From a virus: DNA of 50,185 nt. A program made the translations under genes and the position numbers. The notes under the pieces are model-generated. The model did no database searches and had not been told where the DNA came from. It saw only the letters and a list, made by a program, of their open reading frames with translations. Where the stretch lies: the IMG/VR virus record IMGVR_UViG_3300045988_141000; one strand, 5' to 3'. Below are positions 1 to 50,185 of the stretch, piece by piece. Within the stretch, counting starts at the first letter, position 1. Each line of letters starts with the position of its first letter.

Positions 1-55
1 GGCGGCGGCTCTTGCGAAACAAGGAGGTGCCGAATAATGGCCAACACAATTTTGA
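1..55. repeat. terminal overlap of a circular contig (identical to 50131..50185)
   Basis: Bases 1-55 recur exactly as the last 55 bases; the repeat lies inside the fibre operon, so it is an assembly overlap rather than a biological terminal repeat; unique length 50,130 bp. Confidence 0.95.
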
Positions 56-933
56 TTACTGACGCCGGTCTGGCCGAAGTTGTTGAGGCAGAGCAGGGAG
101 GATTCGCGCCCGTCGTCATTACAGAGGTGGGCTACGGCACGGGGCAATACACGCCGACTGGCGACATGACGGCTCTGAAGGAAGAGTTCAAGCGTCTGAC
201 GACCATCGCAGGCGGTGCGGTTGGAGACAACGTCATCCACCTTGCGGCTCGCGATGATTCGTCCGAGGCCTACACTGTCTACGAGGTCGGCCTCTACACG
301 GCGAGCGGAACCCTTTTCGCGGTTTGCTCTCAGACAGTTCCGATCATCCAGAAGGCTTCGCAGTCGCAGGCTCTGCTCGCGATTGACCTTGCTGTGACGG
401 ACTTCTCTGCAGATTCGATCGCGTTCGGAGATACGAACTTCCTGAACCCGCCGGCGACGACCACGACTCTCGGTGTCGTTGAACTTGCGACGAATGAAGA
501 AACGATTGCAGGAACAGATGGGACGCGTGCTGTCACTCCGAAGAGCCTCAGCGCACGGACATCGACGGAAAGCCGCACCGGTTTGATCCGCATCGCGGTG
601 CCTGCGGAAGTGCTTGCTGGCAAGGAAAACACAAAGGCAGTGACGCCGTTTGGCTTGCTTTCTGCCTTCTTGAAGAATCACGGCGACAGCGGCTTTCAGA
701 AGTTGCCGAACGGTTTGATCGTGCAGTGGGGAAAAGCCTCGATTGCATCCGATGGCTCGACCGTTGTTGCCTTCCCAGTTGCTTTCCCGACGAGCGCCGT
801 TTTCGCGAACGCGACGCCTACTGGTGAGGTTGCTGCGGACTTCGTTGCCACTGGTTTGACGAAGGGGAACACGACCTTCAAGCACAACGCAAACGGAAAG
901 GTCCAGGCGCTCTGGATGGCGCTCGGATTCTGA
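37..933 (+). CDS. tail fibre protein, paralogue 2 (gpH-like N-terminal anchor, fibre repeat, C-terminal tip domain)
   Basis: AAGGAGG RBS upstream; N-terminal ~190 aa align by eye with ORF 49097..50167 (GTLFAV.SQ..PII.K, LLAID); fibre repeat GVVELATNEETIAGTDGTRAVTPKSL; C-terminal LPNGLIVQWGK tip-like segment. Confidence 0.8.
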   Translation: MANTILITDAGLAEVVEAEQGGFAPVVITEVGYGTGQYTPTGDMTALKEEFKRLTTIAGGAVGDNVIHLAARDDSSEAYTVYEVGLYTASGTLFAVCSQTVPIIQKASQSQALLAIDLAVTDFSADSIAFGDTNFLNPPATTTTLGVVELATNEETIAGTDGTRAVTPKSLSARTSTESRTGLIRIAVPAEVLAGKENTKAVTPFGLLSAFLKNHGDSGFQKLPNGLIVQWGKASIASDGSTVVAFPVAFPTSAVFANATPTGEVAADFVATGLTKGNTTFKHNANGKVQALWMALGF

Positions 934-947
934 AAGGAGAGGACAGG

Positions 948-1316
948 ATGGCTTACTACTACAGCGCGTCTCAACGCGCGTTTTACTGCACAGAGATCGT
1001 GTCTGTGGACGTTATGCCCGCAGACAAGGTGGCAGTCGCGGACGAGGCATACAAGAGCCTCATGGCCGCCCAGAATGCGGGGAAGTTGATCCGTCCAGGT
1101 GCGGGCGGAGCTCCTGAAGCCGTCGACCAGACGGGCGCTGCCGCAACTGGCATCGTCCACGAGCTGACGGCTGCAACTGCTGACAAGCTGGGCCACATCA
1201 AGATCGGCAAGAACGTCGATGTTGCAGCAGACGGAACGATCTCGGTCAATCTCTCGAAGGACGTTGGCGATCAAAGGGATCGTGCTCCTGAAAAGCCTGA
1301 CTATGGCTTGAGTTGA
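948..1316 (+). CDS. fibre-associated protein, tail-fibre-assembly-like N-terminus
   Basis: Starts MAYYYSASQRAFY, like the YYFS..N.FY start of P2 gpG / Mu gpU type fibre assembly proteins; contains LGHIKIGKNVDVAADGTISV fibre-type motif; ends DRAPEKPDYGLS (motif repeated at 2952-2987). Confidence 0.5.
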   Translation: MAYYYSASQRAFYCTEIVSVDVMPADKVAVADEAYKSLMAAQNAGKLIRPGAGGAPEAVDQTGAAATGIVHELTAATADKLGHIKIGKNVDVAADGTISVNLSKDVGDQRDRAPEKPDYGLS

Positions 1317-1329
1317 AGGAGGTGAGGGA

Positions 1330-1695
1330 ATGGCTGCTGTTCACAACTTTTCTCTCGATCAAGGTTCGGACAAGGTTGTCTATTTCGTCTTGCGAGATAA
1401 GAGTGGACCGATTGATTTGAGTGGGTACTCGGCTGCCATGCAGGTGCGCCGGTACGCATTCAGCGAGGCGGCTATTGACACGCTGACAACGTGTAATGGT
1501 CGCCTTCTTATTGATAGCCCTGCCGGGAAAATCACAGCGAAGTTCAATCACGAAAACACCGAGCAATATCCGGGCGATTCGGTGCTTTATGACATTGAGC
1601 TTGAGTCTCCGGACGGTGCAATCACAAGGATTCTTGAAGGAAAAATCAAAGTTTCTCCGGAGGTGACCCGTGTCAGATGCAAGCCTAAGGCGTGA
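1330..1695 (+). CDS. hypothetical virion-associated protein
   Basis: 121-aa ORF with AAGGAGG RBS, tightly packed in fibre cluster; beta-rich sequence without a motif I can name. Confidence 0.55.
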   Translation: MAAVHNFSLDQGSDKVVYFVLRDKSGPIDLSGYSAAMQVRRYAFSEAAIDTLTTCNGRLLIDSPAGKITAKFNHENTEQYPGDSVLYDIELESPDGAITRILEGKIKVSPEVTRVRCKPKA

Positions 1696-1909
1696 GAAGT
1701 TTCGCAGAAAAATTGCTTTAACTGAAGAAATCTACATCGAAGGTCAATGTAGCGATATTGCTCCAAAGGTCGTCACGGTAGAGGTTCCTGGCATCCAGGG
1801 ACCTCCGGGCAAGGATGGGGCAGACGGAAAACCCGGAGAACCTGGTAAACCAGGCGAGGGGGCTCACGTCGAAAGCATTGACAACTCTTTCATTGACAAT
1901 CTTTTTTAA
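1670..1909 (+). CDS. small collagen-like repeat protein
   Basis: GTG start with GGAGG 6 nt upstream, overlaps previous ORF by 26 nt; eight G-X-Y triplets GIQGPPGKDGADGKPGEPGKPGEG (about 1790-1861). Confidence 0.5.
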   Translation: MSDASLRREKFRRKIALTEEIYIEGQCSDIAPKVVTVEVPGIQGPPGKDGADGKPGEPGKPGEGAHVESIDNSFIDNLF

Positions 1910-1929
1910 TCGTAAAAGGAGTGAGAAAA

Positions 1930-2787
1930 ATGAGTGAATTGAATGCATTTTTAGATAAGCAAGGTTTGACTCATTACGACAGCAAATTGAAGACGGTCGT
2001 TGCCGGGCAGATGACGATCGAGGGGCGCACGATCACGCTGAAGAGCGTCTCTGGTGCAACGCTCGCAACGGTGACGATGCCGCAGACGATCTATGAGCTT
2101 GCAACGACTCAGAAAGACGGTCTGATGAGCAAGGAAGACTTCGCCAAGTTGCAAGGTGTCGCAGCTCAGGCGACGAAGGTCGAAAACTCTGAAACGAACG
2201 GGAACATCCAGATCAATGATGTTGAGACGCCCGTTTATGTACACCCGAGCGTGACGGCAGGTGCTCTTGGTGCAGGACTTTACAAAATCACGACTGACGG
2301 CAATGGGCACGTCACTTTAGGCACGAAGGTTGTCAAGGGCGACATCACGGCGCTCGGTATTCCGGCTCAGGACACGACGTATGGTCCGGCTTCGGCTGAT
2401 GCGGCGGGTTTGATGTCTGCTGCCGACTTCACAAAACTGCAAGGAGTCGCTGTGGGAGCTCAGGTCAACGTACTCGAAAAAGTGAGCGTCAACGGCGGTG
2501 CTCTGCCGGTCAGTTCGAAGGGCGTCAATATCGATCTCACGCCGTACGCGCTGAAAACGGACATTGCGAGCGCTGTGAACTACAAGGGTTCCGTCGAAAA
2601 CTATGCGGCGTTGCCGACCAAGGATGTGAAGGCCGGCGATATGTACAACGTCGAGACTGCCGATCCTGCTCATCAGATCGACGCCGGGATGAATGTCGTT
2701 TGGAATGGCGCGAGTTGGGACCCGATGGCCCCGATGATCACGATGACTGGCATTACGAACGAAGAGATCGACGCCCTCTTCGCGTAG
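1930..2787 (+). CDS. tail fibre-like protein
   Basis: ATG 1930 with AGGAG 8 nt upstream (track ORF begins at GTG 1921); N-terminus SELNAFLDKQGLTHYDSKLK and two GLMS..DF.KLQGV motifs, both common in phage fibre proteins. Confidence 0.65.
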   Translation: MSELNAFLDKQGLTHYDSKLKTVVAGQMTIEGRTITLKSVSGATLATVTMPQTIYELATTQKDGLMSKEDFAKLQGVAAQATKVENSETNGNIQINDVETPVYVHPSVTAGALGAGLYKITTDGNGHVTLGTKVVKGDITALGIPAQDTTYGPASADAAGLMSAADFTKLQGVAVGAQVNVLEKVSVNGGALPVSSKGVNIDLTPYALKTDIASAVNYKGSVENYAALPTKDVKAGDMYNVETADPAHQIDAGMNVVWNGASWDPMAPMITMTGITNEEIDALFA

Positions 2788-2798
2788 GGGGCGTTCCG

Positions 2799-3011
2799 AT
2801 GGCTAACTCTTTTCTTGATTTGATAGGGCTGGCTCACTTCAAAGAGAAGCAGAGTCAGCAAATTAGCAAAGAGTTCGCAAAGAAGTCCGAGGTAGTCACA
2901 AAGGCTGATGCCTCGGATTTCGCGAAACACAAGACGTGCAGCGCGATTCGAGATCGAGCACCGTCAAAGCCGGACTACGGCTTATCAAAAACAAAGGAGG
3001 GGGCTAAATAA
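2799..3011 (+). CDS. small fibre-associated protein
   Basis: In-frame ATG 2799 inside track ORF 2700..3011 (upstream part overlaps the previous gene); N-terminus MANSFLDLIGLAHFKEK is fibre-type; contains DRAPSKPDYGLS. Confidence 0.5.
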   Translation: MANSFLDLIGLAHFKEKQSQQISKEFAKKSEVVTKADASDFAKHKTCSAIRDRAPSKPDYGLSKTKEGAK

Positions 3012-4876
3012 TGGCTCTGAAAGAACAAGACATCGTCTTTACGACGACGGATGAAGCAGGCAACACCGTCATCCAGTTTCCGATTACGCGCGTCGAAAAT
3101 GTCGAAGACGCCGTGCGTACTGTGAACAAGAAGAAGCCTGACAGCAATGGCGACATTCAGATCGATGTCGACATGAGTCATCTGGCGACAAAAGACGAGC
3201 TGACGAAGGGCTTGGCGAATAAGCGAGATCACACGATCCAGATCGCAAACGCCGACCTGAACACGCTACTTGAGGACAAAACATGGGCCTGCAGTGGAAC
3301 GCTGAAAAACACACCGATCGCTTGCACCTTCTGCATTGTGCATGCATACGACACGGGTGCTCCTGTCAGCGGGAACATCGTGCAAGTCTGCTACGTTCCG
3401 AACCAAACCGACAACACAGTCCGCACCTTTTGGCGCAACTGCAATAATGGGGTGACCTTCGGGAAATGGAGCGAATCCGGTGCGGTGAAGACGGTGAATA
3501 GCATCGCGCCTGATGCTTCTGGCGAAGTGACGCTGCCGAACGCTACGACGAGCAAGGCCGGTCTTGTGCGCCTTGCTGCTGAAGAAGACGTTTTGAACGA
3601 AGCTCCCCAGACGGCGGTCTGCACTCAGCTGATCTACGAAATCAATGAGTTCCGTCGCAAGTCAACGGCGTACCAGGTCGGGGACAAGGTGGACTGTGCT
3701 TTCCAATACGAGCGCTTCCTTGAATGCACGAAGGCTGGGACGACGAGCGGGGAGTTGCTCGATACTCGCAACGTCACGCATGGGCAGGTCATTACGGACG
3801 GCACGGTTGAATGGACTGTGCGTACCCATGTTCGAAGCGTGAATGGTAACGTTGCAGGCGCGGACGGTAATGTTCTGGTTGACGTTGGGGTGAAGACGGT
3901 CAACGGGAATGGCCCGGATGGATCGGGTAATGTGAAGGTTGATACTGGCCTCCCGCTCGGTCATCTATTCGCGTGGCCGTACCAGACGCCGCCGGACGGC
4001 GCGATCCAGTGCAACGGCGCGACCTACAACCGTGTGCTTTACAAGGACTTCTTCGCCTATGCGACCTCGAAGGGTTGGGTGAAAACCGAATCCGAGTGGC
4101 AGAGCATCGCTTCTGCCAACGGTGGTTTTTGTCCGTACTACTCACAAGGCGACGGCTCGACGACTTTCCGCACGCCGAAGTTTGCACCTTTCATGCAGAT
4201 CGCAATTGCGGGGTCGAGCGCGGGTAAGTACCACAAGGCGGGGTTGCCGAATATCAAAGGTACTTTTAACGCTTCTCAGCTCACTGACGGGAATGACTCC
4301 GCCTCTGGTGCTCTGATTGTTGGAGGGGGCGTATCAAAACCAACGCCGGGCAGCGCTTCTGACGATTCGCAAAATGGCTTTAGCTTTGACGCCTCTAAAT
4401 CCAACGCCATCTACGGTCGCTCCAGTACCGTTCAACCCGAGTCGCACGAGTGGATGATTTGCGTCGTCGTGGCAGGGCAGGCGACGAATCTCGGTTCTGT
4501 GGATATGGCCGATGTTTTGACGACCGTTGCGCAGGTGCAGGCGGACGTCGGGGACGTTCAAACAGCGTTGTTGTCAATGCAAGCGGAAATCGAGCGGATT
4601 GCAGCCAAAAGCATGATGCCGAATTATTCGTCTTATGTTCAAGTTTCAAAAGGCGATTTTACCCCTACATATGACGGATGGATTCGCCTGTATCTTTCCG
4701 CGTCTAGTGACTATCGTAGCTTCACGGTAAAACACAAGGATAGCAATCAAGTCATTTTGAATTACGCCCAAGCGCGTTACCCGGGTTCGGGTTGGTTTAT
4801 GTGTCCTTTGGTAGCTGGAGAAACTTATACGATCTCGAGCAGTGAAAGCGCAATTTACTTCCATCCGATGAGGTGA
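3011..4876 (+). CDS. tail fibre protein with phage tail-collar domain
   Basis: 621 aa; repeated V(K/R)(T/S)VNG..PD.SGNV units; tail-collar-like signature GHLFAWPYQTPPDGAIQCNGATYNRVLYKDFFAY...GDGSTTFRTPKF; TSKAGLVRLAAEEDV fibre repeat. Confidence 0.8.
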   Translation: MALKEQDIVFTTTDEAGNTVIQFPITRVENVEDAVRTVNKKKPDSNGDIQIDVDMSHLATKDELTKGLANKRDHTIQIANADLNTLLEDKTWACSGTLKNTPIACTFCIVHAYDTGAPVSGNIVQVCYVPNQTDNTVRTFWRNCNNGVTFGKWSESGAVKTVNSIAPDASGEVTLPNATTSKAGLVRLAAEEDVLNEAPQTAVCTQLIYEINEFRRKSTAYQVGDKVDCAFQYERFLECTKAGTTSGELLDTRNVTHGQVITDGTVEWTVRTHVRSVNGNVAGADGNVLVDVGVKTVNGNGPDGSGNVKVDTGLPLGHLFAWPYQTPPDGAIQCNGATYNRVLYKDFFAYATSKGWVKTESEWQSIASANGGFCPYYSQGDGSTTFRTPKFAPFMQIAIAGSSAGKYHKAGLPNIKGTFNASQLTDGNDSASGALIVGGGVSKPTPGSASDDSQNGFSFDASKSNAIYGRSSTVQPESHEWMICVVVAGQATNLGSVDMADVLTTVAQVQADVGDVQTALLSMQAEIERIAAKSMMPNYSSYVQVSKGDFTPTYDGWIRLYLSASSDYRSFTVKHKDSNQVILNYAQARYPGSGWFMCPLVAGETYTISSSESAIYFHPMR

Positions 4877-4881
4877 TAAAT

Positions 4882-5337
4882 ATGATTTGTCGTTATAAAA
4901 TTCACGACCAAGAAACGAACGAAGTCCTTATCGCCGTAGGCGACAACAGCCAATTTTTCGAATCTATGGGCTATACGGAGGTTGGCGAGGTTGAACAAGC
5001 CTACGACGGACGGTATTTCGTAGCGGGGTATGCGCCTACGATGCCGCAAGAAGAGATCGAAGCGCAACGACTCTCCGAAGCGAAGCGCATTCGAGCAGAG
5101 CAAGTTGGCACAATCATCGTCGAGGTCGACGGAATGCCCTTTGATGGTGGAGAGCATGCTCAAGCGAGAATGGCGAACGCCATTAAGGCGTCTGAAATTC
5201 TGGGTCGCTCGTCCGTCATCTGGGTGTTGGCGAACGACGAAGTCGCGACCGTCACGGTCGAGCAGCTGAAAGAGGCGTTTGCAAAGTCCGTAGTGACAAT
5301 GGGGGAGTTCTGGCCAAGGCCTTATGAGAGGGCATAA
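4882..5337 (+). CDS. fibre-adjacent protein (DUF4376-like / fibre chaperone candidate)
   Basis: ATG 4882 with GAGGTG RBS (track ORF starts GTG 4873); C-terminal pattern VDGMPFDGGEHAQARMANAI...WVLANDEVATVTVEQLKEA resembles proteins that follow fibre genes. Confidence 0.45.
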   Translation: MICRYKIHDQETNEVLIAVGDNSQFFESMGYTEVGEVEQAYDGRYFVAGYAPTMPQEEIEAQRLSEAKRIRAEQVGTIIVEVDGMPFDGGEHAQARMANAIKASEILGRSSVIWVLANDEVATVTVEQLKEAFAKSVVTMGEFWPRPYERA

Positions 5338-5392
5338 CGGCGTCAACTCCCAAGAAACTTGACACCTCCGCCCGCAGGCGGTAGGCCGATCA

Positions 5393-6190
5393 TCAATCTT
5401 GCGTAAGCGTCAGGGTTCTTTTCTTGCGGAACATCGTCGAAAGGCGATAGCTGCCAGACTTGAACCCACGGAGTAAACGCACTTTTACGCTCGTCGGTAG
5501 CCGTCTGCGGTTGGTTCGGTCCCCGATGTCCGACGGGGCGTCGAGCGTTGTAGCGCAAGCCGAAAACAGTCTATGCGGAGGAAAACGCTTCGCGAAATCG
5601 GAGTAAGGGCAGAACAGCCAGTCGTCGACGGGGGCCGGTATCGGCATATAGGTCGCGAGTGCGTAGGCAGCGGCTTCGCGATGAATCAGATACGCAAAGC
5701 AGCAAAGCGGTGTTGGCCGGATGATCCGAAACAATTCCGTGTCGTGAACTGGATAGCTCTCTCCGACAGTGAACGTTTGACGGGATCCGTGGAGCTGGAT
5801 GACGCGGGCTCCTTGAGGGATCCAATCGGAAGACGCGGCGAACAGCTTGAAGCGGGGGGATAGGACGATGTCGTCCTCCATGATCAAGCCCCATTCGCAG
5901 TTGCTTTTTACGAGCTTCTCCCAACAGGCCGCATGCGATAGGAAGCACGCAATCTCAGTTGGCCACAGCGCTTTTCTGAAGACGAATTTCTCGGGGGCGT
6001 CGTAGGGGGCCTCTAGCCGGGAGAGTTCCTCCGGGCTCAATTTACGACCGTCTCTGGCGGGGATGCGTTGGAAGGAGAGGCCTTGCACGGAAAGTTGTTT
6101 TGAAATCGATTCTAGACGCTCGGGCGAGCGATCGAGATTAATCACCAAACGGAGAATATTGGTCGGGGGGGGGGTAACATCTTGAAACAT
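5393..6190 (-). CDS. glycosyltransferase family 25 (LOS/LPS beta-1,4-galactosyltransferase type), moron
   Basis: 265 aa from ATG 6190; LVINLDRSPERL, FQRIPARDG, EIACFLSHAACWEKL, GLIMEDDIVL match GT25 (Lic2B/LgtB/LgtE family) hallmarks; only reverse gene in fibre cluster; track ORF extension to 6559 rejected. Confidence 0.8.
   Translation of the reverse strand: MFQDVTPPPTNILRLVINLDRSPERLESISKQLSVQGLSFQRIPARDGRKLSPEELSRLEAPYDAPEKFVFRKALWPTEIACFLSHAACWEKLVKSNCEWGLIMEDDIVLSPRFKLFAASSDWIPQGARVIQLHGSRQTFTVGESYPVHDTELFRIIRPTPLCCFAYLIHREAAAYALATYMPIPAPVDDWLFCPYSDFAKRFPPHRLFSACATTLDAPSDIGDRTNRRRLPTSVKVRLLRGFKSGSYRLSTMFRKKRTLTLTQD
6165..6174 (-). repeat. homopolymeric C10 tract (G10 on + strand) in codons 6-9 of the GT25 gene
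   Basis: Minus strand reads ATG TTT CAA GAT GTT ACC CCC CCC CCG ACC; uninterrupted run of 10. Confidence 0.95.
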
Positions 6191-6265
6191 ATTTAATATG
6201 AATGCAAAAAGACTCACGGTTGTCGAATCATCCGTGAGCAGGGTACGTACACATAACTTTATCAC

Positions 6266-6286
6266 ACCGCCTTCGGGCGGTTTTTT
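6266..6286 (+). terminator. rho-independent-type hairpin (ACCGCC-TTCG-GGCGGT + T6)
   Basis: Perfect 6-bp GC-rich stem, tetraloop, T6; sits 4 nt before ATG 6290 with no upstream + strand gene to terminate. Confidence 0.5.
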
Positions 6287-6289
6287 CAT

Positions 6290-6547
6290 ATGTGGAATTT
6301 GATTGTCCAGGCGCTGAAAGATGCGCTGAAGGAAAAGGTGACTGAAATGACGAAAGAAGAAGTGAAGGAGTGGCTCGACAAGCTCGGCGTCAAGGTCGAG
6401 GAAGTGACCGACGATCTCATCGCCAAGGTAGAGGCTCAGAAGGCTCTGCTCGATGCGGAGACGCGCCGGAAGACTAGACTCTTCTGGGGCCCGGTTGGTT
6501 TTCTGGCTGGGGTTCTCTGCACGTGGCTGTACAACATCCTCTTCTGA
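6290..6547 (+). CDS. small tail-anchored membrane protein, unknown function
   Basis: 85 aa; charged helical N-terminal part (KEEVKEWLDKLGVKVEEV) and one C-terminal hydrophobic helix LFWGPVGFLAGVLCTWLYNILF. Confidence 0.5.
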   Translation: MWNLIVQALKDALKEKVTEMTKEEVKEWLDKLGVKVEEVTDDLIAKVEAQKALLDAETRRKTRLFWGPVGFLAGVLCTWLYNILF

Positions 6548-6612: not shown

Positions 6613-6642
6613 GGCCGGGGGACTGTCCCTCGGCCTTTTTTT
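6613..6642 (+). terminator. rho-independent terminator
   Basis: GGCCGGGGG-ACTGT-CCCTCGGCC (9 bp incl. one G-T) followed by T7. Confidence 0.7.
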
Positions 6643-6655
6643 ATAAGGAAAGCCA

Positions 6656-7909
6656 TTGTTTTATTACGGCTTCATTAACGACCAGAGCATCTGCACTGGC
6701 ACATACGGTTTCCCGACAGAGGTAACCATTCCTAACTACATCTACATCGGAACGACAGACGACAAGACCGTCATCGGGAAGAAGTGGACTGGCAACGGCT
6801 GGGTCGAAGTGATCTATTACTTCTACGCACAGCTCAACGAAAAGGACCTCTGCATCGGCGTGCAGGAGTATCCGACCGAAGTGATCGACGCGCGTTTGAT
6901 TCGAATCGAAACGCTCGACGAGTCTCTGATTGGGTTCTGGTACGACCGCACGGATTCGACCTTCAAGCCTGCGCCGATCCGTGTGCTCGCGGATCACTCC
7001 ACCGACGTTGTGAACTATCGCAACGAAGACCGTTGGCTTTCGGATGTGCTTGACGAAAAGGCGAACAGCCTTACCATCTACAGCAAGACCGAATCGGATG
7101 CTCGTTTTGCCCTCAAGGGCGAAGGTGGTTCTGGTGGAACGCCGGGCGCTGACGGCGCTGATGGTTTGAGCGCTTACGAGGTGGCTGTGGCGAATGGCTT
7201 CATTGGCAGCGAGGTTGAATGGCTTGCGAGCCTTGTTGGTGAACCTGGCCTGCCTGGCAAGGACGGCGTTGATGGCAAGAACGGCATCGACGGTGCTCGC
7301 GGTGAGCAGGGCCTCCCGGGCAAGGATGGTCTTCCCGGTGCTGAAGGTGCGCCCGGTAAGGACGGCGCTCCTGGTAAGGATGGACTTCCTGGTCGAGATG
7401 GCGAACGCGGTCCGCAGGGCTATCCGGGTGCCGATGGTCGCGATGGCACGAATGGCCGAGATGGTCAGGACTTCGGCGGCTCTGTAGCGTCTGACGTGAT
7501 TCGCCTAAACGGTACTCAGGCGCTCTTCAAAACGTCGTCCATGATGACGCTCGCGACGAACGGCCTTGAGACGATGATTGCCGGTTCGAAAATCTACTCG
7601 AAGACGGCCATCAGCGTTTCGTCGGACGTTCGGCTTAAGGAAGGAATTGCGAAGGTCGATGCCGACCGAGCGATTGAGTTCATTCGCAAGCTCCCGGTCG
7701 TGACTTACTCCTACATTGGCGAGGAAGACGGTCAGAGGCACATGGGGCTCATTGCGCAGCAGGTCCAGAATGCGGACCCGCAGATTGCGAAGCTCTTTGT
7801 CAGCAAGTCGTCTGAGGGCTATCTGGCGGTGGACTATGCCTCTCTGGTGTGTCCGTTGATCCTCGCGGTTCAGCGACTTTCGGATGAGGTTGAGCGACTT
7901 AAAAGCTAA
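6656..7909 (+). CDS. collagen-like tail fibre with C-terminal intramolecular chaperone (peptidase S74-type) domain
   Basis: TTG start; about 25 G-X-Y triplets (aa 195-270, nt 7238-7465); SAYEVAVANGFIGSEVEWLASL motif; C-terminus SSDVRLKEGI...HMGLIAQQVQ...VDYASLVCPLILAVQRLSDEVERLK resembles the S74 autoproteolytic chaperone domain. Confidence 0.75.
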   Translation: MFYYGFINDQSICTGTYGFPTEVTIPNYIYIGTTDDKTVIGKKWTGNGWVEVIYYFYAQLNEKDLCIGVQEYPTEVIDARLIRIETLDESLIGFWYDRTDSTFKPAPIRVLADHSTDVVNYRNEDRWLSDVLDEKANSLTIYSKTESDARFALKGEGGSGGTPGADGADGLSAYEVAVANGFIGSEVEWLASLVGEPGLPGKDGVDGKNGIDGARGEQGLPGKDGLPGAEGAPGKDGAPGKDGLPGRDGERGPQGYPGADGRDGTNGRDGQDFGGSVASDVIRLNGTQALFKTSSMMTLATNGLETMIAGSKIYSKTAISVSSDVRLKEGIAKVDADRAIEFIRKLPVVTYSYIGEEDGQRHMGLIAQQVQNADPQIAKLFVSKSSEGYLAVDYASLVCPLILAVQRLSDEVERLKS

Positions 7910-7928: not shown

Positions 7929-7957
7929 GGGGACGGGAAACCGTCCCCTTTTTTTTT
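7929..7957 (+). terminator. rho-independent terminator
   Basis: GGGGACGG-GAAA-CCGTCCCC followed by T9. Confidence 0.85.
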
Positions 7958-8047
7958 ACGCCTGCGATGCCTCCGGGCGTGCCAGAACTGGTGCTTTTCG
8001 AAGTCGTTGCATATGGTGGAAGTGAAGAAAATCCAAGGAGGCGATCT

Positions 8048-8509
8048 ATGGAAAAAGGGTTTGTGCAGACGTTCATCGACTACATGTCGTTGCTCGTACC
8101 TGCTAAAGGGGAGGCGTATCTGATGGTCGTTTCAGGGGCTGTCGGAAGCGCACTGGCTTGGGCGCTAGGAGGGATTGACCTGCAGTTGCAGTGGCTGTTG
8201 ATGTTCGTCGCCGTGGACTACGTGACGGGGACCATCGCTGCAGGAAAGACCGGCGAGTGGAACAGCCGTGTCGGCTTTCGAGGGCTTTTCAAAAAGGTTT
8301 TCATTTTCGTCGTCGTTGCGCTGTCGCATGGGCTTGATGTCATCACAGGCACCGAGATGCTACGCAACGCTGCCATTGTGGCTTACGCCGTGAATGAGCT
8401 CGGCAGCACGCTTGAGAATCTCGACCGCCTTGGCTTCGGCGGCATGATCCCAGGCTTTCTGCATCGAGCGATTAAGGAAATTAAAAGTAGGGAGGTTGTC
8501 AAAAAATGA
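8048..8509 (+). CDS. holin (phage_holin_4_1 / toxin-secretion holin type)
   Basis: ATG 8048 with AAGGAGG 6 nt upstream; multiple TM helices; VAVDYVTGTIAAGKTGEWNSRVGFRGLFKK...NELGSTLENL matches the family pattern; overlaps endolysin start (ATGA). Confidence 0.75.
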   Translation: MEKGFVQTFIDYMSLLVPAKGEAYLMVVSGAVGSALAWALGGIDLQLQWLLMFVAVDYVTGTIAAGKTGEWNSRVGFRGLFKKVFIFVVVALSHGLDVITGTEMLRNAAIVAYAVNELGSTLENLDRLGFGGMIPGFLHRAIKEIKSREVVKK

Positions 8510-9051
8510 GTAAGAAACTGACTATCGTTCTGGACCCTGGGCACGGCGGGACCGATCCGGGGGCTGTGAATGGTCGCTACAAAGAGTCCGAGGCGACCTT
8601 GGGTATCGCAAACAAAATTGCGGACAAACTAAAGGCGAAAGGGCATCGCGTTGTGCTCACTCGAACGAAGGATCAGGCGCTTCTGCTTCAACAGCGATGC
8701 GATATTTCGAACGCAGCCAAGGTGGACGCGTTTATTTCGATCCATTGCAATAGTGCCGAGAACAAGGACGCAAGCGGAATTGAGACGTTCAAATATCCGG
8801 GGGTCGGAGGCGTGACGAAACGCCTTGCTGAAAACATCCAGAACGGTCTAGCTTCAAACTTTCCTGAAGAAAAAGACCGAGGTGTCAAGGAGGCGAAGTA
8901 CTACGTTCTGAAGCGCACGAACGCACCGGCCGCACTGGTGGAGGTTGGCTTCATCTCACACGATCCGACAGCCGAGAAATTGTTCAGGTTCAGCTACCAA
9001 GACAAGCTCGCACGAGTAATTGCCGAGGGAGTTGAAAAAACTTTTTCTTGA
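8506..9051 (+). CDS. N-acetylmuramoyl-L-alanine amidase endolysin (Amidase_3 type)
   Basis: LDPGHGGTDPGAV, ISIHCNS, GIETF, VEVGFISH motifs. Confidence 0.85.
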   Translation: MSKKLTIVLDPGHGGTDPGAVNGRYKESEATLGIANKIADKLKAKGHRVVLTRTKDQALLLQQRCDISNAAKVDAFISIHCNSAENKDASGIETFKYPGVGGVTKRLAENIQNGLASNFPEEKDRGVKEAKYYVLKRTNAPAALVEVGFISHDPTAEKLFRFSYQDKLARVIAEGVEKTFS

Positions 9052-9395: not shown

Positions 9396-10499
9396 TCACA
9401 CAACGTTCACTTGTAATTTGTCGATTGCGTCGATCAGGTCGGTAACGTCCTTGTGCGTATACAACTCTGTCACGTTCGAATTCGAGTGGCCGACGATCCT
9501 TTTCAGGACCACTGAGTTTGACGATACGCCGCAAGAATCCATCAGAGAAACGAACGTATGTCGGAGCGCATGAGGCGTGTGCGAGACGCCCAGGCTCTCC
9601 ATATACGGGTCGAAAAAGTGCTTCTTGTACTGGTCGTACTTAATAGGCTTGCCGTTCGCGTTTTCGATCAGGTGCTCGCCATCGAGGCGCTTTGACAGGA
9701 TCGGTGCAAGCTCTCGGTGGATCGGCACGATCCGGTCTGCGTTTTCGGTCTTTGTCCCGCGCACGTGGATGATGCGCTGCGCAAGGTCCACGTCTTCAGT
9801 CTTGACCCCGAGGAGCTCTCCTATCCGCATGCCGGTGTAAAGCATGATGAGCACAGTGTCAGCCAGCCGCAGTTCCGCGTAAGACTTCTTGCCAGTAGGG
9901 AATTGCACTGCGAAGTCTTGCGAGCCAAATACAGCGCCAAGCTCCTCTGCCGTGAAGAATTTTTCCTTCGCGGCCTTTTTCTTTTTGGGCGGTGTGATCA
10001 CCAGGAACTGCGAGTAGTCTTTCGTGACGATGTCGTTCTCGATGCAGTACTTGAACGCGTTTTTGAAGATCGATTTCACCTTGCCCTGACTCTCCTCCGA
10101 CATGTGATTCATGCCGTCGAGGATGTCCTGCATGTGGACCTTCTTGATGTCGGCCATCTGCATGTCGTAGAGCGGGGCGCAGCGCTTGTAGGCTGACCTG
10201 AGCCCGGCGGCGCTGCTCGGGTACTTCTTGAAGTGCGGCGGCGTCCAGATGTCCCAGACCTCAGCAAAGGTGAGCGTCTTTCTTGTGAGGTCGATTGGGT
10301 TCTGGTGGTACTCGGCCAAAGCGATCATCGCTTCTTTTCGGCTTGCGTAGTATCCAAGCGTGGACGTGAGCTGCTTTGCCTTTCCCGTCTCTTCGTTGAT
10401 CTCCCATCCGGTTGTGATTCGTACCCAGAAGGGCCGTCGGCGATTGCCGCTTAATTTTGAAATGTTTCCATAGCCGTTTGGCGCTTTAATTGTCATCAC
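9396..10499 (-). CDS. int: tyrosine integrase with N-terminal arm-type (AP2-like) DNA-binding domain
   Basis: GNRRRPFWVRIT...ETGKAKQ...GYYASRKEA arm-binding-type N-terminus; catalytic-type motifs YTGMRIGELLGV, HALRHTF, GHSNSNVTELYTH. Confidence 0.9.
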   Translation of the reverse strand: MMTIKAPNGYGNISKLSGNRRRPFWVRITTGWEINEETGKAKQLTSTLGYYASRKEAMIALAEYHQNPIDLTRKTLTFAEVWDIWTPPHFKKYPSSAAGLRSAYKRCAPLYDMQMADIKKVHMQDILDGMNHMSEESQGKVKSIFKNAFKYCIENDIVTKDYSQFLVITPPKKKKAAKEKFFTAEELGAVFGSQDFAVQFPTGKKSYAELRLADTVLIMLYTGMRIGELLGVKTEDVDLAQRIIHVRGTKTENADRIVPIHRELAPILSKRLDGEHLIENANGKPIKYDQYKKHFFDPYMESLGVSHTPHALRHTFVSLMDSCGVSSNSVVLKRIVGHSNSNVTELYTHKDVTDLIDAIDKLQVNVV

Positions 10500-24961: not shown

Positions 24962-25813
24962 ATGAGCTTCAAGGTTTCCGCACTGGCATGGATGGTTCCG
25001 GTTGAGAAGTCAACCGAACGTCTTGTGCTCCTCGCTCTTGCCGACCGGGCCGATGACGAAGGCAAGAACTGCTATCCGTCCGTCGAGACCATTTGCGGCA
25101 TGACGCAGATGAATCGAAAGACGGTATTTGCTGTCATTTCGAGACTTGCGGAACGTGGCGTTTTGTCAGTACGCAAGCGAGAGGTGCACAACTCGAATGA
25201 GTACCTTCTGCACATAGAGGATTGGCCCAAAAACGGAAGTACCGAAAACGGGACGACCCAAAAACGGGACAACCCAAAAACGGTACGTCAGTTGTCCCGA
25301 AAACGGGACGATGGTTGTACCGAAAACGGGACGACAGTAGTACCGAAAACGGGACACGAACCTATCAATGAACCTATCAATGAACCTATCAATAACCAAT
25401 CAATAACCAGTAGAGAAGACACGCCGCCAAAAGCCAGAGCCAAGAAAGGCGAAGCCTGGAAAAAGTGGATCAAGGTCGAAAAACCGGACGAAGTTCCTGA
25501 TGACCTCTGGAAGCAATTCGGAGAGATTCGCGCCCTGAAAAAGCGGGCTTTGACTGAAAGTGCGCTTGAGCTTCTTCGATCCGAAGGGGAGAAGGCTCAC
25601 ATGACGCTGCTTCAGGTCATCGAGCATTGCTGCGCCAATGCCTGGGCAGGCTTCAGAGCCTCCTGGTTGACGAGGACGAGCGGTAGCACCTACCGAAAGC
25701 CTCAGAACGTCACCCAGACGGCTGAATACCGAGAACGACTTCAGGCCTGCTGCCGAGGTGAAGGCAGAACTGAAAAACTCGCCGACGACGGCGTAACGAT
25801 CATCGTGGATTGA
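24962..25813 (+). CDS. replication initiator (lambda O-like role) with N-terminal winged-helix domain
   Basis: ERLVLLALADRADDEGKNCYPSVETICGMTQMNRKTVFAVISRLAERGVLS HTH_36-like; internal iteron array; followed by a DnaC-like loader. Confidence 0.7.
   Translation: MSFKVSALAWMVPVEKSTERLVLLALADRADDEGKNCYPSVETICGMTQMNRKTVFAVISRLAERGVLSVRKREVHNSNEYLLHIEDWPKNGSTENGTTQKRDNPKTVRQLSRKRDDGCTENGTTVVPKTGHEPINEPINEPINNQSITSREDTPPKARAKKGEAWKKWIKVEKPDEVPDDLWKQFGEIRALKKRALTESALELLRSEGEKAHMTLLQVIEHCCANAWAGFRASWLTRTSGSTYRKPQNVTQTAEYRERLQACCRGEGRTEKLADDGVTIIVD
25226..25408 (+). repeat. origin-like iteron array inside the initiator gene
   Basis: Seven copies of CC(G/C)AAAACGG(G/T/A)A(C/G) at 25226, 25242, 25257, 25273, 25297, 25320, 25343, then GAACCTATCAAT x3 (25358-25393) and AACCAATCAATAACC. 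Confidence 0.75.
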
Positions 25814-27474: not shown

Positions 27475-27691
27475 TGCAGACCGAGCCGCTAGAAGCGATG
27501 AGTGGATCATGCGAGCGGCAATTGAGGAGAGAAAGCCAGAGGGACCGAGACCGATCGTGGTGAGCTTGTGCTTGAACTGCGGGGAAGTGATCGAGAGAGT
27601 GCCTGCAACGGTCGAGGGAGTTCGAAATGTTCGACGTTGGTGTTGTGCCGAATGCCGAGACGAATGGGAAAGGGAGCATGCGAATGGATGA
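27467..27691 (+). CDS. C4 zinc-finger protein (TraR/DksA-like)
   Basis: CLNCGEVIE...CCAECRDEWE. Confidence 0.55.
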   Translation: MDDADRAARSDEWIMRAAIEERKPEGPRPIVVSLCLNCGEVIERVPATVEGVRNVRRWCCAECRDEWEREHANG

Positions 27692-28055
27692 AGCGGAGCG
27701 CCGAATTCTTGAAGCGCGCCTTGAGAACTGGAGTTCATGGGCGCGTGAGGGAAAGCCTCGTGGAAAGAGTTCAATGCTCGGCGTGATGCGAGAGGCCGGC
27801 TATGTGCCAGAGGAAGGCACAAAGGAACGTCCTCGCATTATCGACATCAATGACGCTGTGGAGATCGAGGCGGCATGGAGCGCGATGCTCGATTCAAAAG
27901 AGAAGCGGTTGTTGCAGGAGGCCTATGGGAATCCGAGCCGGCCGCTCTGGATAACCTGTCGTGTGGTAGGCATCCGACCACGCAAGTACGAACAGCATCT
28001 CATGTTGGCAATGCGCATGTTGCACAACGTGCTGTCCCGTGATAGACTTCACTAA
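27678..28055 (+). CDS. putative late-gene regulator (antiterminator Q-like)
   Basis: N-terminal LEARLENWSSWA resembles the LERWGAWA start of Q-type antiterminators; last early gene, followed by a terminator and then packaging genes. Confidence 0.4.
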   Translation: MRMDEAERRILEARLENWSSWAREGKPRGKSSMLGVMREAGYVPEEGTKERPRIIDINDAVEIEAAWSAMLDSKEKRLLQEAYGNPSRPLWITCRVVGIRPRKYEQHLMLAMRMLHNVLSRDRLH

Positions 28056-28181: not shown

Positions 28182-28323
28182 GAAAACAACACCGCGCACG
28201 CCTCTCAACGATGCGCAACCCGCGCGGTTTCCATTCGCTACCTTAGGGCAGTTTGCTCTAGGGGATGTCTGAGGGGCGCCCTGTTTGACCAGGGTGTCCC
28301 TTGGGCTGTTTTAGGAGTGCCAT

Positions 28324-28548
28324 ATGAAGCGTTGGCTCAACTATCTTGATGAGAAGATCATCGACTTTCTGGCACGCCAGTTCATCGCAACCATTCGACG
28401 TCGCAATCGACGCATTGGTATTGAAGATCGTTCCCGATATGAAGGGATTCGATTCTTCAATGTGGGAGGCGGACGCGGCTCTCTGGTTTATGACGTTCGG
28501 TTACCCGACACGGCGAGGCCTTCCGTGCTTGCCGATCAGGTGGCGTAA
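28324..28548 (+). CDS. hypothetical basic protein
   Basis: AGGAG 6 nt before the ATG; 74 aa; 3-prime end overlaps the convergent ORF 28501..28734 by 48 nt. Confidence 0.35.
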   Translation: MKRWLNYLDEKIIDFLARQFIATIRRRNRRIGIEDRSRYEGIRFFNVGGGRGSLVYDVRLPDTARPSVLADQVA

Positions 28549-28734
28549 GGCTTCTGTTGTGGGGTTGTGCTTGTACTCAAGCCATTCCTCAACCGTGACA
28601 CAGTCAATCAGCCATTGGCTGCCGTCGGCCCGGAGAATGAGAACCTCATCTCCTGGTTGACGCTGGACTTCGGTAATGCCGTCTTCATCATGGTTGACGA
28701 CATCGAAGCCGTCTACATAAGCAAATTCATTCAT
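28501..28734 (-). CDS. hypothetical acidic protein
   Basis: ATG 28734 with GGAG RBS gives 77 aa MNEFAYVDGFDVVNHDEDG...; longer track ORF rejected. Confidence 0.4.
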   Translation of the reverse strand: MNEFAYVDGFDVVNHDEDGITEVQRQPGDEVLILRADGSQWLIDCVTVEEWLEYKHNPTTEALRHLIGKHGRPRRVG

Positions 28735-49096: not shown

Positions 49097-50167
49097 ATGG
49101 ACATCGTTTTGACGACAGCCGGTATTCAGGCCGTCATCAATGCACAAGAGACCGGTACGAACGCCGTCACCATTTCTGAGATCGGCGTCGGAACCGGCAA
49201 ATACACAGCAAACAAGGAACAGACACAGCTACAAGCTCAAGTCAAGCGCATGCCGATCCTAGAAGGTGGGCAAGCGGGTGACAACGCGATTCACGTCGCG
49301 TGCAAGGATGACGGCCCGGGCTCGTATGAAGTGTGCGAGTTCGGGCTTTTCCTTTCTGATGGGACGCTTTTCGCTGTTTACTCGCAGAGCACGCCGATCA
49401 TCGCAAAGCAGGAGTCAAGCAATCTGCTCCTTGCTATTGACATGAAGCTCGAAGGCGTCAACGCTGGGAACATCACTTTCGGCGATGTGTCTTTCTCTTT
49501 CGCTGCTGCAACGGCCGTGAATGCGGGGATCGTTGAGCTTGCTACTGACGAAGAAACGCAGGCAGGGACCGATACGCAGCGAGCTGTGACGCCCGCCGGT
49601 CTGAAGAGCTTGACTTCCACTGCAGAACGTGCGGGTCTCATCCGCACAGCAACGGAAGCCGAAGCGAAGGCAGGAACGGAAGGCGCTGCGGCTCTCACGC
49701 CTGCGACCCTGAAAGGCGCTGCGGCTTCTGAAGCAGAGACGATTGAAGGCAAGTCGGACGCTCACTTTGTGACGCCTCTCGGTCTTCGAGGCTTGAAAGC
49801 TACGACCGGACGAAACGGGCTTGTCGAACTGGCGACAGAGGCTGAGGCAAAGGCAGGGACGGACAAAGAACGCGCCGTTACTCCTGCGGGCTTAAAGGCT
49901 GTCGTCGATGAGGCGACACCGGACGCAAGCGAAGCAGCCAGGGGGATGATTCAGATCGCCTCTACGGTTGAAGCTACATCCGGAATAGATGCTTTGAAGG
50001 CAATGACGCCCGCAACTGGAAAGGTTGCGCTCGATGCTCGAATTGCGACGGTTGAAGAGGCGAAAGTTGGCACGTCGACGACGAAGCTCATCACGCCTGC
50101 AACGCTGAAGGCCGTTGTGGATGCAGCTGTGGCGGCGGCTCTTGCGAAACAAGGAGGTGCCGAATAA
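49097..50167 (+). CDS. tail fibre protein, paralogue 1 (gpH-like anchor + six fibre repeats, no tip domain)
   Basis: N-terminus paralogous to ORF 37..933; repeats GIVELATDEETQAGTDTQRAVTPAGL, GLIRTATEAEAKAGTEGAAALTPATL, GLVELATEAEAKAGTDKERAVTPAGL and others up to the C-terminus. Confidence 0.8.
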   Translation: MDIVLTTAGIQAVINAQETGTNAVTISEIGVGTGKYTANKEQTQLQAQVKRMPILEGGQAGDNAIHVACKDDGPGSYEVCEFGLFLSDGTLFAVYSQSTPIIAKQESSNLLLAIDMKLEGVNAGNITFGDVSFSFAAATAVNAGIVELATDEETQAGTDTQRAVTPAGLKSLTSTAERAGLIRTATEAEAKAGTEGAAALTPATLKGAAASEAETIEGKSDAHFVTPLGLRGLKATTGRNGLVELATEAEAKAGTDKERAVTPAGLKAVVDEATPDASEAARGMIQIASTVEATSGIDALKAMTPATGKVALDARIATVEEAKVGTSTTKLITPATLKAVVDAAVAAALAKQGGAE

Positions 50168-50185
50168 TGGCCAACACAATTTTGA
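50131..50185. repeat. terminal overlap (identical to 1..55)
   Basis: See feature 1..55; contains the stop of fibre paralogue 1 and the start of paralogue 2. Confidence 0.95.

Follow-up and report, generated by a model that had tools for sequence, protein, structure and literature searches.

A glycosyltransferase gene with a poly-C tract

The IMG/VR virus record IMGVR_UViG_3300045988_141000 was analysed as one stretch of DNA of 50,185 bases (the window), with a focus on a reverse-oriented glycosyltransferase gene of family GT25 at positions 5393-6190 that holds an uninterrupted run of ten C residues shortly after its start codon. Two alternative ATG codons in different frames precede the run, and stop codons in both alternative frames follow it. 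The features that define the gene are:

5393-6190, minus strand: gene of the GT25 glycosyltransferase; 265 codons and a TGA stop when the ten-C state is read from the first ATG
6188-6190, minus strand: first ATG (ATG1), in frame at 7, 10 or 13 C
6178-6180, minus strand: second ATG (ATG2), 10 nt downstream of ATG1, in frame at 8, 11 or 14 C
6165-6174, minus strand (G10 on the plus strand): poly-C tract, candidate hypermutable switch, codons 6-9 (ACC CCC CCC CCG)
6136-6148, minus strand: TTGGTGATTAATC, with TGA and TAA in both alternative frames; out-of-frame products stop after 11-18 residues

The encoded protein (265 residues) begins MFQDVTPPPTNILRLVINLDRSPERL, and the motifs from which a preliminary description had recognized a GT25 enzyme (LVINLDRSPERL, FQRIPARDG, EIACFLSHAACWEKL and GLIMEDDIVL) are all present in its translation. 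Profile comparison with PF01755 confirmed the assignment, with residues 14-190 matching profile positions 4-197 of 199 at 88.6 bits (cut-off 24). The protein also matched PHROG 2835 ('glucosyltransferase, moron'; E = 1e-22). In sequence searches of the PDB, human COLGALT1, a bacterial GT25 and mimivirus R655 were recovered, and the EDD motif aligned with theirs. The AlphaFold2 model, for which 44 homologues were used, reached a predicted local distance difference test score (pLDDT) of 89.9, and the top 18 Foldseek matches of this model in the PDB were all GT25, the best being 9crz, 8xkd/8xlz and 9evj (E 6e-12 to 1e-9). Residues E105-D106-D107 are invariant in the 44-sequence alignment and align with the EDD of COLGALT1. 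The phage enzyme belongs to GT25, with a GT-A fold and an acidic DXD-type (EDD) motif, whilst an NCBIfam search returned no equivalog by which its donor or acceptor specificity could be named. The prolines encoded by the tract fall within residues 1-10 of the model, which are disordered, and strand structure begins only at residue 12; a variable number of prolines would therefore be tolerated.

The C10 run in codons 6-9 (G10 on the plus strand) is present as first described and is the longest homopolymer in the window, where the next G or C run has 6 bases. By chance, 0.03 G runs of at least 10 bases would be expected in a first-order Markov model and 0.18 with bases treated as independent and identically distributed. 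Phase-variable simple sequence repeats (SSRs) were defined as mutable repeats (at least 7 units for G/C homopolymers) lying within a reading frame near its 5′ end, a description that fits the C10 tract. When tract length was varied in silico in the window allele, 7, 10 or 13 C gave proteins of 264-266 residues from ATG1, and 8, 11 or 14 C gave proteins of 261-263 residues from ATG2 (MLPPP...), which are 3-4 residues shorter at the disordered N-terminus. With 6, 9 or 12 C there was no in-frame start, and the sole products were peptides of 12-16 residues that terminate at the TGA/TAA pair in TTGGTGATTAATC (OFF). The preliminary description had expected a change of one C in either direction to truncate the protein. 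This is correct for the loss of one C, as the nine-C allele offers no in-frame ATG, GTG or TTG between the tract and the nearest stop upstream, but not for the gain of one C, because the second ATG 10 nt downstream rescues the frame and yields 262 residues. The switch would thus have three states (ATG1-ON, ATG2-ON and OFF), with both ATG codons presumably used.

Tract length and reading frame across related loci

DNA was retrieved for 67 related loci in IMG/VR, GTDB genomes and human gut metagenomes, the metagenomic contigs with GT25 loci being of human gut origin. One copy (L028; C8, ATG2 frame) lies within a prophage of the isolate Sutterella wadsworthensis 2_1_59BFAA, and the host is Sutterella. 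In a protein search, homologues began MFQDV(T/I)PPPT... or ...MLPPPT..., carried long upstream extensions (...VSRCYPPPT...) or were fragments starting from the internal MEDDIVL. Among the 42 phage-borne copies, a count that takes in the window, the C-run was 6, 7, 8, 9, 10, 11, 12 or 13 bases long. Within one lineage with identical flanks (GATGTTA-Cn-AACCAACATT), runs of 7 (n = 7), 8 (n = 3), 9 (n = 7), 10 (n = 7), 11 (n = 2) and 13 C (n = 1) were found. Tracts of 7, 8, 9, 10, 11 or 13 C were present at 17 or more loci whose 762-nt bodies are 100% identical, and 172 of the 209 pairs with three or fewer substitutions in those 762 nt differed in tract length. In the 476 kb retrieved, homopolymers of at least 8 G or C were confined to this leader and its host counterpart. 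A few alleles look locked, their tract being interrupted (CCCCCCTC) or missing (ACCACC in L035).

Reading frames were also unevenly represented, with the 42 loci divided between the ATG1 frame (25), the ATG2 frame (8), frame 2 with a mutated ATG2 (1) and OFF (8). The ATG1 frame exceeded the one-third expected by chance (p = 4e-4; p = 6e-4 with duplicates removed) and, in a sub-lineage with a post-tract spacer 1 nt shorter, the in-frame tract lengths shift to match. Both points argue for a tract that is read as codons. All eight OFF loci, and the ATG-less frame-2 locus, keep the full 253-codon body wherever the contig extends far enough, and the ratio of nonsynonymous to synonymous substitution rates (dN/dS) between phage lineages is 0.10-0.18, showing that purifying selection acts on the phage GT25 gene. 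Tract-less homologues start with an ATG 11-14 codons before LRLVINL, 12 in most, and ATG1 likewise stands 12 codons before it. Candidate phase variation, as raised in the preliminary description, is therefore strongly supported by the comparison between loci through the range of lengths, the six lengths found on identical bodies, the intact OFF bodies and the ATG1-frame excess.

Two kinds of deletion derivative were observed among the phage GT25 genes. In L024 (2859-3197) residues 1-113 alone remain, and in L025/L066 (~6001-6294 and 3001-3294) residues 168-265 abut a collagen-like fibre gene. The assembly OGOX01 holds both a phage-borne GT25 (C9, OFF) and a chromosomal tract-less GT25 (L044, L051).

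A common leader before exchangeable genes

An exact 55-bp terminal direct repeat (1-55 and 50131-50185) identifies the window as a circular assembly, giving a genome of 50,130 bp once the repeat is removed. The element had earlier been taken for a prophage, and the repeat indicates a circular phage contig rather than a prophage in situ in host DNA. It is a temperate phage, with an integrase (9396-10499), an adjoining helix-turn-helix (HTH) repressor and a GpA-type (lambda-type) terminase. Tail-fibre genes stand on both sides of the GT25 gene (37-5337 and 6656-7909), followed by a holin (7967-8509) and an amidase (8506-9051), and the GT25 gene is the sole family-supported minus-strand gene between these fibre and lysis genes, in keeping with its original description as the only reverse gene of the fibre cluster. 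Its neighbours and the elements around it are:

3011-4876, plus strand: tail fibre of 621 residues, whose distal end falls within the swapped segment described below
4873-5337, plus strand: tail-fibre-assembly-like gene (DUF4376), convergent with GT25 and co-inherited with it
5368-5381, no strand assigned: GC hairpin CCGCC-TGCG-GGCGG with a 5-bp stem, between the convergent GT25 and DUF4376 genes
6205-6239, minus strand (the sense strand of the gene): conserved 8-bp hairpin GCTCACGG-N12-CCGTGAGT plus T5, ~15 nt upstream of ATG1
6256-6264, minus strand: TGATAAAGT, candidate extended -10 element, at the start of the conserved upstream block
6266-6286, plus strand: terminator-like hairpin and T-run, just before the ATG of the 85-residue gene
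6290-6547, plus strand: gene of 85 residues, divergent neighbour of the switch at most phage loci
6656-7909: second tail fibre, which contains collagen triple-helix repeats and ends C-terminally in an S74 intramolecular chaperone domain

The match of 4873-5337 to Pfam DUF4376 (23.2 bits, E = 9.7e-5) lies slightly under the 25-bit cut-off, and tail-fibre PHROGs also match this gene. No family match was found for the 85-residue gene in Pfam, PHROG or NCBIfam searches. A blastn search of 5300-6400 against 50,697 GenBank phage records found no cultured-phage relative, and scans for tRNA genes and Rfam families added nothing at the GT25 locus. Further observations concern other parts of the window. 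A strong terminator-like hairpin on the plus strand (6613-6635) precedes the collagen-repeat fibre gene, and a T9 run (7949-7957), the second-longest homopolymer of the window, shortly precedes the holin gene, which starts at 7967. A cluster at 25226-25408 combines tandem repeats of periods 12, 15-16 and 23; it falls within an HTH_36 gene (24962-25813) or at its end, and the repeats may be replication-origin iterons. The Rfam abiF RNA motif (RF03085) was detected at 28192-28228 on the plus strand (49.1 bits against a gathering score of 37); both plus-strand flanking open reading frames, tested for an AbiF-like gene, were without a Pfam match (27627-28055 upstream and 28346-28660 downstream).

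Hairpins were located on both sides of the GT25 gene, as previously noted, at 5368-5381, 6205-6239 and 6266-6286. As a bracket of terminators the arrangement stands in part, since the hairpin at 5368-5381 has no T-run and was negative in the terminator scan, and of the three the consensus scan called 6266-6286 only, with no terminator on the strand of the GT25 gene. In the hairpin at 6205-6239, single-sided substitutions retain G-U pairs in the sense orientation only, RNAalifold found no double compensatory change and the fold z-score is modest (-1.7). In L105, a locus with GT32 cargo (~2945-2990), this hairpin is deleted and TGATAAAGTTA and the leader are kept. The upstream hairpin therefore appears dispensable and, given the lack of compensatory changes, the z-score and its absence from L105, we do not claim an attenuator role for it. 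GTGATAAAGTTA marks the start of conservation between loci, also in those that diverge farther upstream (L037, L019/L020 and L105), and on the basis of conservation TGATAAAGT is a candidate for an extended -10 promoter element.

The leader itself can be written as ATGTTNCAARATGTTA followed by the C-run. Searching IMG/VR with this leader recovered five further contigs in which a common upstream block (GTGATAAAGTTA, the hairpin GCTCACGG/CCGTGAGC and T5), two starts and a C tract precede other genes, namely two Stealth-family proteins (CR2, 137 bits) and a GT32-type enzyme (Gly_transf_sug, 44.6 bits; Caps_synth). The loci with these cargos are:

L082/L096, 2991-4014; L083/L113, 2991-3999; L090/L101-L112, ~2985-3726: Stealth or GT32 cargo

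Tracts of 6, 7, 8, 9, 10 or 11 C, or an interrupted tract, were found across the twelve GT32 loci. Of the 16 loci with other cargo, seven are in the ATG2 frame, four in the frame of the first start (GTG there) and five are OFF, with all bodies intact.

In sister phages whose two flanks are 90-95% identical to those of the window, Stealth or GT32 cargo takes the place of GT25. The alignment of these phages to the window runs from 9175 down to 6166/6167, exactly the tract, and resumes from 4548 or 3933 downwards; the swapped unit therefore comprises the cargo, the chaperone-like gene and the distal fibre. GT25 is in turn present in at least three other phage backbones, and in other backbones the DUF4376 gene adjoins it at 73-98% identity. 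Leader, cargo and chaperone move together across backbones (L096/L097, L102/L101 and L002/L028), and L021 has the leader and cargo alone in common. The initial suggestion that the gene is a moron is upheld by its reverse orientation in a temperate phage and by the replacement of its cargo between these close relatives. The central region of the fibre, tested for co-variation, does not co-vary with the cargo. GT25 is accompanied by the DUF4376 gene and the last ~90 fibre residues (~50% identity) only, and the chaperone and the last 20-90 fibre residues are the sole parts that co-vary with the cargo. Fibre residues 1-599 of the window are 84% identical to those of a Stealth-carrying phage, and residues 1-313 alone match a GT25-carrying one. 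This co-inheritance of cargo, chaperone and fibre end may reflect mere adjacency.

Outside phages, all tract-less homologues are chromosomal and share 77-83% amino acid identity with the phage protein. The chromosomal GT25 lies directly downstream of a GT9 heptosyltransferase, in the order sodium/alanine symporter, GT9, GT25, GT2, then GT4 and GT90 on the opposite strand, then valyl-tRNA synthetase. Because these relatives sit in a lipopolysaccharide (LPS)-core locus and the remaining database homologues are 40% identical or less, the phage gene can be regarded as a captured host gene of the LPS-core type, and the capture as old, since synonymous divergence (dS) has reached saturation against the chromosomal copies. 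The genes around the chromosomal paralogue also suggest that the acceptor may be the core of LPS or lipooligosaccharide (LOS). Many of the chromosomal tract-less copies are pseudogenes, with -1/-4 indels, a split into open reading frames of 101 and 162 residues, or a 5′ truncation. Unlike these copies with their ordinary lesions, the phage copies vary at the tract alone and have intact bodies. A second, internal tract was considered as the cause of the truncated chromosomal copies and rejected, as the lesions seen in the alignment are ordinary ones, namely single-base losses (one in AAA, another elsewhere) and a deletion of 4 nt.

The next chromosomal gene, adjoining the tract-less GT25, is a GT2 glycosyltransferase (Pfam, 122.6 bits). 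It starts ATGTTACAAAATGTTA (also given as AAACATGTTACAAAATGTTA) and continues with C10, C4TC9 or C4TC16, and its leader is identical to the phage leader at 25 of 27 positions. Contig ends fall inside the GT2 tract in three contigs (L056, L070 and L072). With this leader and a variable C tract, the host therefore uses a two-ATG poly-C device of the same kind within its LPS locus, and the chromosomal GT2 is probably a phase-variable LPS gene of Sutterella itself. The chromosomal loci concerned are:

L057, L059-L064, L067, L068 (6686-7489), L029 (122-610): chromosomal GT25 pseudogene copies
L029 (689-720), L068 (7568-7610), L071, L073: host GT2 tract loci

Proposed mechanism, alternatives and related systems

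Overall, we consider it probable that 5393-6190 is a contingency locus of a temperate Sutterella phage, consisting of a reverse GT25 moron of the LPS/LOS-core type that is switched by the length of its poly-C tract. Slipped-strand mispairing during replication would alter the tract, five codons after the start, so that lengths of 7, 10 or 13 C would give the full-length protein from ATG1, 8, 11 or 14 C the protein from ATG2 and 6, 9 or 12 C the OFF state. If GT25 is expressed in lysogeny, as we infer, lysogen populations would stochastically and reversibly add or omit one hexose on the LPS core. The phage may in this way modify its own receptor, and the ecological role could be to exclude superinfection or mask the receptor, or to evade immunity or other phages.

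Several points weigh against this interpretation. The loci are partly non-independent, as some contigs recur in both IMG/VR and ENA, and the excess of ON frames as a whole (ATG1 and ATG2 together, 33 of 42 against two-thirds expected) is weak (p = 0.07). The polymorphism was seen between consensus assemblies, and heterogeneity within one population, reversibility and switching within a clone would be extrapolations from it. The acceptor is likewise proposed from a single line of evidence, the neighbourhood of the chromosomal paralogue. A consensus two-hexamer (sigma-70) scan found no promoter on the minus strand, and no Shine-Dalgarno sequence precedes ATG1 or ATG2. This last point also favours an alternative that we regard as unlikely, in which the tract is hypermutable without being a translational switch, either because translation starts downstream of it or because it lies in a 5′ untranslated region, its length then having no effect or tuning the level of expression. 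A TTG and a GTG stand in frame downstream of the tract (codons 15 and 16; 6148-6143) and could permit tract-independent initiation, gene callers chose this GTG as the start in P0016 and P0017, and typical GT25 proteins begin only ~3 residues before VINL in the 44-sequence consensus. However, the GTG is likewise without a purine-rich motif upstream, a start at V16 would remove most of the predicted strand 12-18, and tract-less homologues keep their ATG-initiated N-terminal extension of 11-14 codons. The enrichment of ATG1-frame lengths (p = 4e-4) and their shift with the spacer in another sub-lineage also argue for translation through the tract.

The substrate and the reality of the length differences were open to other explanations as well. 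Collagen triple-helix repeats and an S74 domain are encoded one gene away from an enzyme whose best solved relatives include COLGALT1 and mimivirus R655, and GT25 could accordingly be imagined, like the GT25 enzymes of eukaryotes and giant viruses, to glycosylate a collagen-like protein rather than LPS, here the collagen-repeat tail fibre of the phage (6656-7909). We largely reject this explanation and consider it very improbable, given that the gene is anti-oriented to the structural operon, that the same GT25 occurs in backbones without a neighbouring collagen fibre (L028 type and L019-L021), that its 77-83% identical chromosomal relatives sit in an LPS-core locus beside a heptosyltransferase, and that no lysyl hydroxylase was found among the neighbours examined. 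Less probable still is that errors of homopolymer sequencing or assembly account for the differences in length, or that the gene is a pseudogene in decay with no function maintained. In favour of this are the error-proneness of homopolymers, several contig breaks within the host tract and the truncated derivatives (L024 and L025/L066), but a range of 6-13 C across the consensus assemblies of many samples and an isolate genome goes far beyond errors of one base in either direction. All OFF bodies are intact under a dN/dS of 0.10-0.18, and the same pattern recurs at three other cargo genes. The contingency locus switched by tract length thus remains our preferred reading.

A more far-reaching version of it is possible but, in our estimation, somewhat doubtful. 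Here the upstream block, hairpin, two starts 10 nt apart and poly-C tract would form a portable phase-variation cassette into which GT25, GT32 and two Stealth genes have been plugged, its leader having been recruited from the host LPS gene. The enzyme, travelling with the fibre chaperone and the fibre C-terminus, would edit the glycan that the tip of the phage's own fibre recognises, providing a switchable superinfection exclusion. The idea of a matched receptor stays hypothetical, since co-variation of the fibre is limited to the chaperone and the fibre end.

Homopolymer switches on LOS glycosyltransferases are textbook examples of phase variation in the chromosomes of the pathogens Neisseria, Haemophilus, Campylobacter and Helicobacter, and the lgtB/lgtE and Haemophilus Lic2B/Lex2B enzymes are themselves GT25. 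In Neisseria, lgtA, lgtC and lgtD (poly-G) and lgtG (poly-C) confer phase variation of LOS glycosyltransferases (PMC2192423). The phage gene resembles the Neisseria lgt genes in carrying a homopolymer in the 5′ coding region of an LOS/LPS-core glycosyltransferase, where a frame shift would toggle the addition of one sugar, and shares its family with lgtB/lgtE. Unlike these genes, which are chromosomal and belong to mucosal pathogens, it is carried by a temperate phage of Sutterella, a prevalent commensal of the human gut, and its switch is a transferable 5′ module common to unrelated cargo genes. The lic1A, lic2A and lic3A genes of H. influenzae combine tetranucleotide repeats with alternative initiation codons and differing expression levels. 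As in lic, two starts in different frames lie upstream of the repeat and two of three length classes give protein, whereas the repeat is here a homopolymer and phage-borne rather than tetranucleotide and chromosomal, with the use of both ATG codons being predicted. Simple sequence repeats of this kind have been surveyed (PMC2651432).

Amongst phages, the gtrABC operons of P22 and other Salmonella phages determine phase-variable O-antigen glucosylation, which is heterogeneous in lysogens and affects adsorption (PMC2909390, PMC3688519). The Sutterella gene is of the same lysogenic-conversion type, in that a temperate phage would modify LPS, although the likeness of GT25 to gtr is a functional analogy only. 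The gtr switch is epigenetic, through Dam methylation and OxyR at the promoter, in contrast to a change of DNA length, and gtr is a three-gene periplasmic system (GtrA flippase, GtrB and GtrC) in contrast to a single cytoplasmic-type GT25. The gtrA and gtrB families had no match among the scanned neighbours (fibre, chaperone-like, 85-residue, holin and amidase genes), and the locus is therefore not a Gtr system. Hypermutable poly-G tracts are described in receptor-binding protein genes of Fletchervirus, which infects Campylobacter (Sorensen et al. 2021, as cited in bioRxiv 10.1101/2025.10.21.683753). Repeat tracts also occur in the BPP-1 methylase, a PB1-like baseplate gene and T2/T4, none of these being a conversion gene of a temperate phage (bioRxiv 10.1101/2025.10.21.683753). 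The present locus has in common with Fletchervirus and T2/T4 a phage homopolymer tract (7-11 bases there) and the prospect of ON and OFF subpopulations, but in those lytic phages virion or phage-function genes are affected and the phenotype is the phage's own, whereas a conversion gene would act on the surface of the lysogen. T5 llp and the lambdoid cor genes, which encode protein blockers of FhuA, are receptor-blocking genes that stand beside receptor-binding or tail-fibre genes. The GT25 gene is similarly a small accessory gene beside a tail-fibre module (anti-oriented in T5 as here) and is exchanged with it, its link to a receptor being conjectural, and it differs from llp and cor, which have no stochastic switch, in its tract-length switch.

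Neither phase variation in Sutterella nor an SSR-controlled phage-borne LPS glycosyltransferase came up in our literature searches. The mechanism itself is classical; what is new is its carriage by a temperate gut phage and a switch common to four enzyme cargos and one host gene. The locus joins three known themes, namely chromosomal LOS homopolymer switches, phage-borne heterogeneous LPS modification (epigenetic in Salmonella) and repeat tracts tied to the own functions of lytic phages. If this reading is correct, odd metagenomic gene calls at these loci, such as variable N-termini, 'split' genes and contig breaks, would reflect biology rather than error, and the leader would represent a natural modular phase-variation part that can be moved between genes. 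The system would also allow a test of whether phages hedge their bets on masking their own receptor. Ultimately, lysogeny would give Sutterella a heritable and reversible surface heterogeneity, with a bearing on recognition by immunoglobulin A (IgA) and other immune factors, phage susceptibility and strain persistence.

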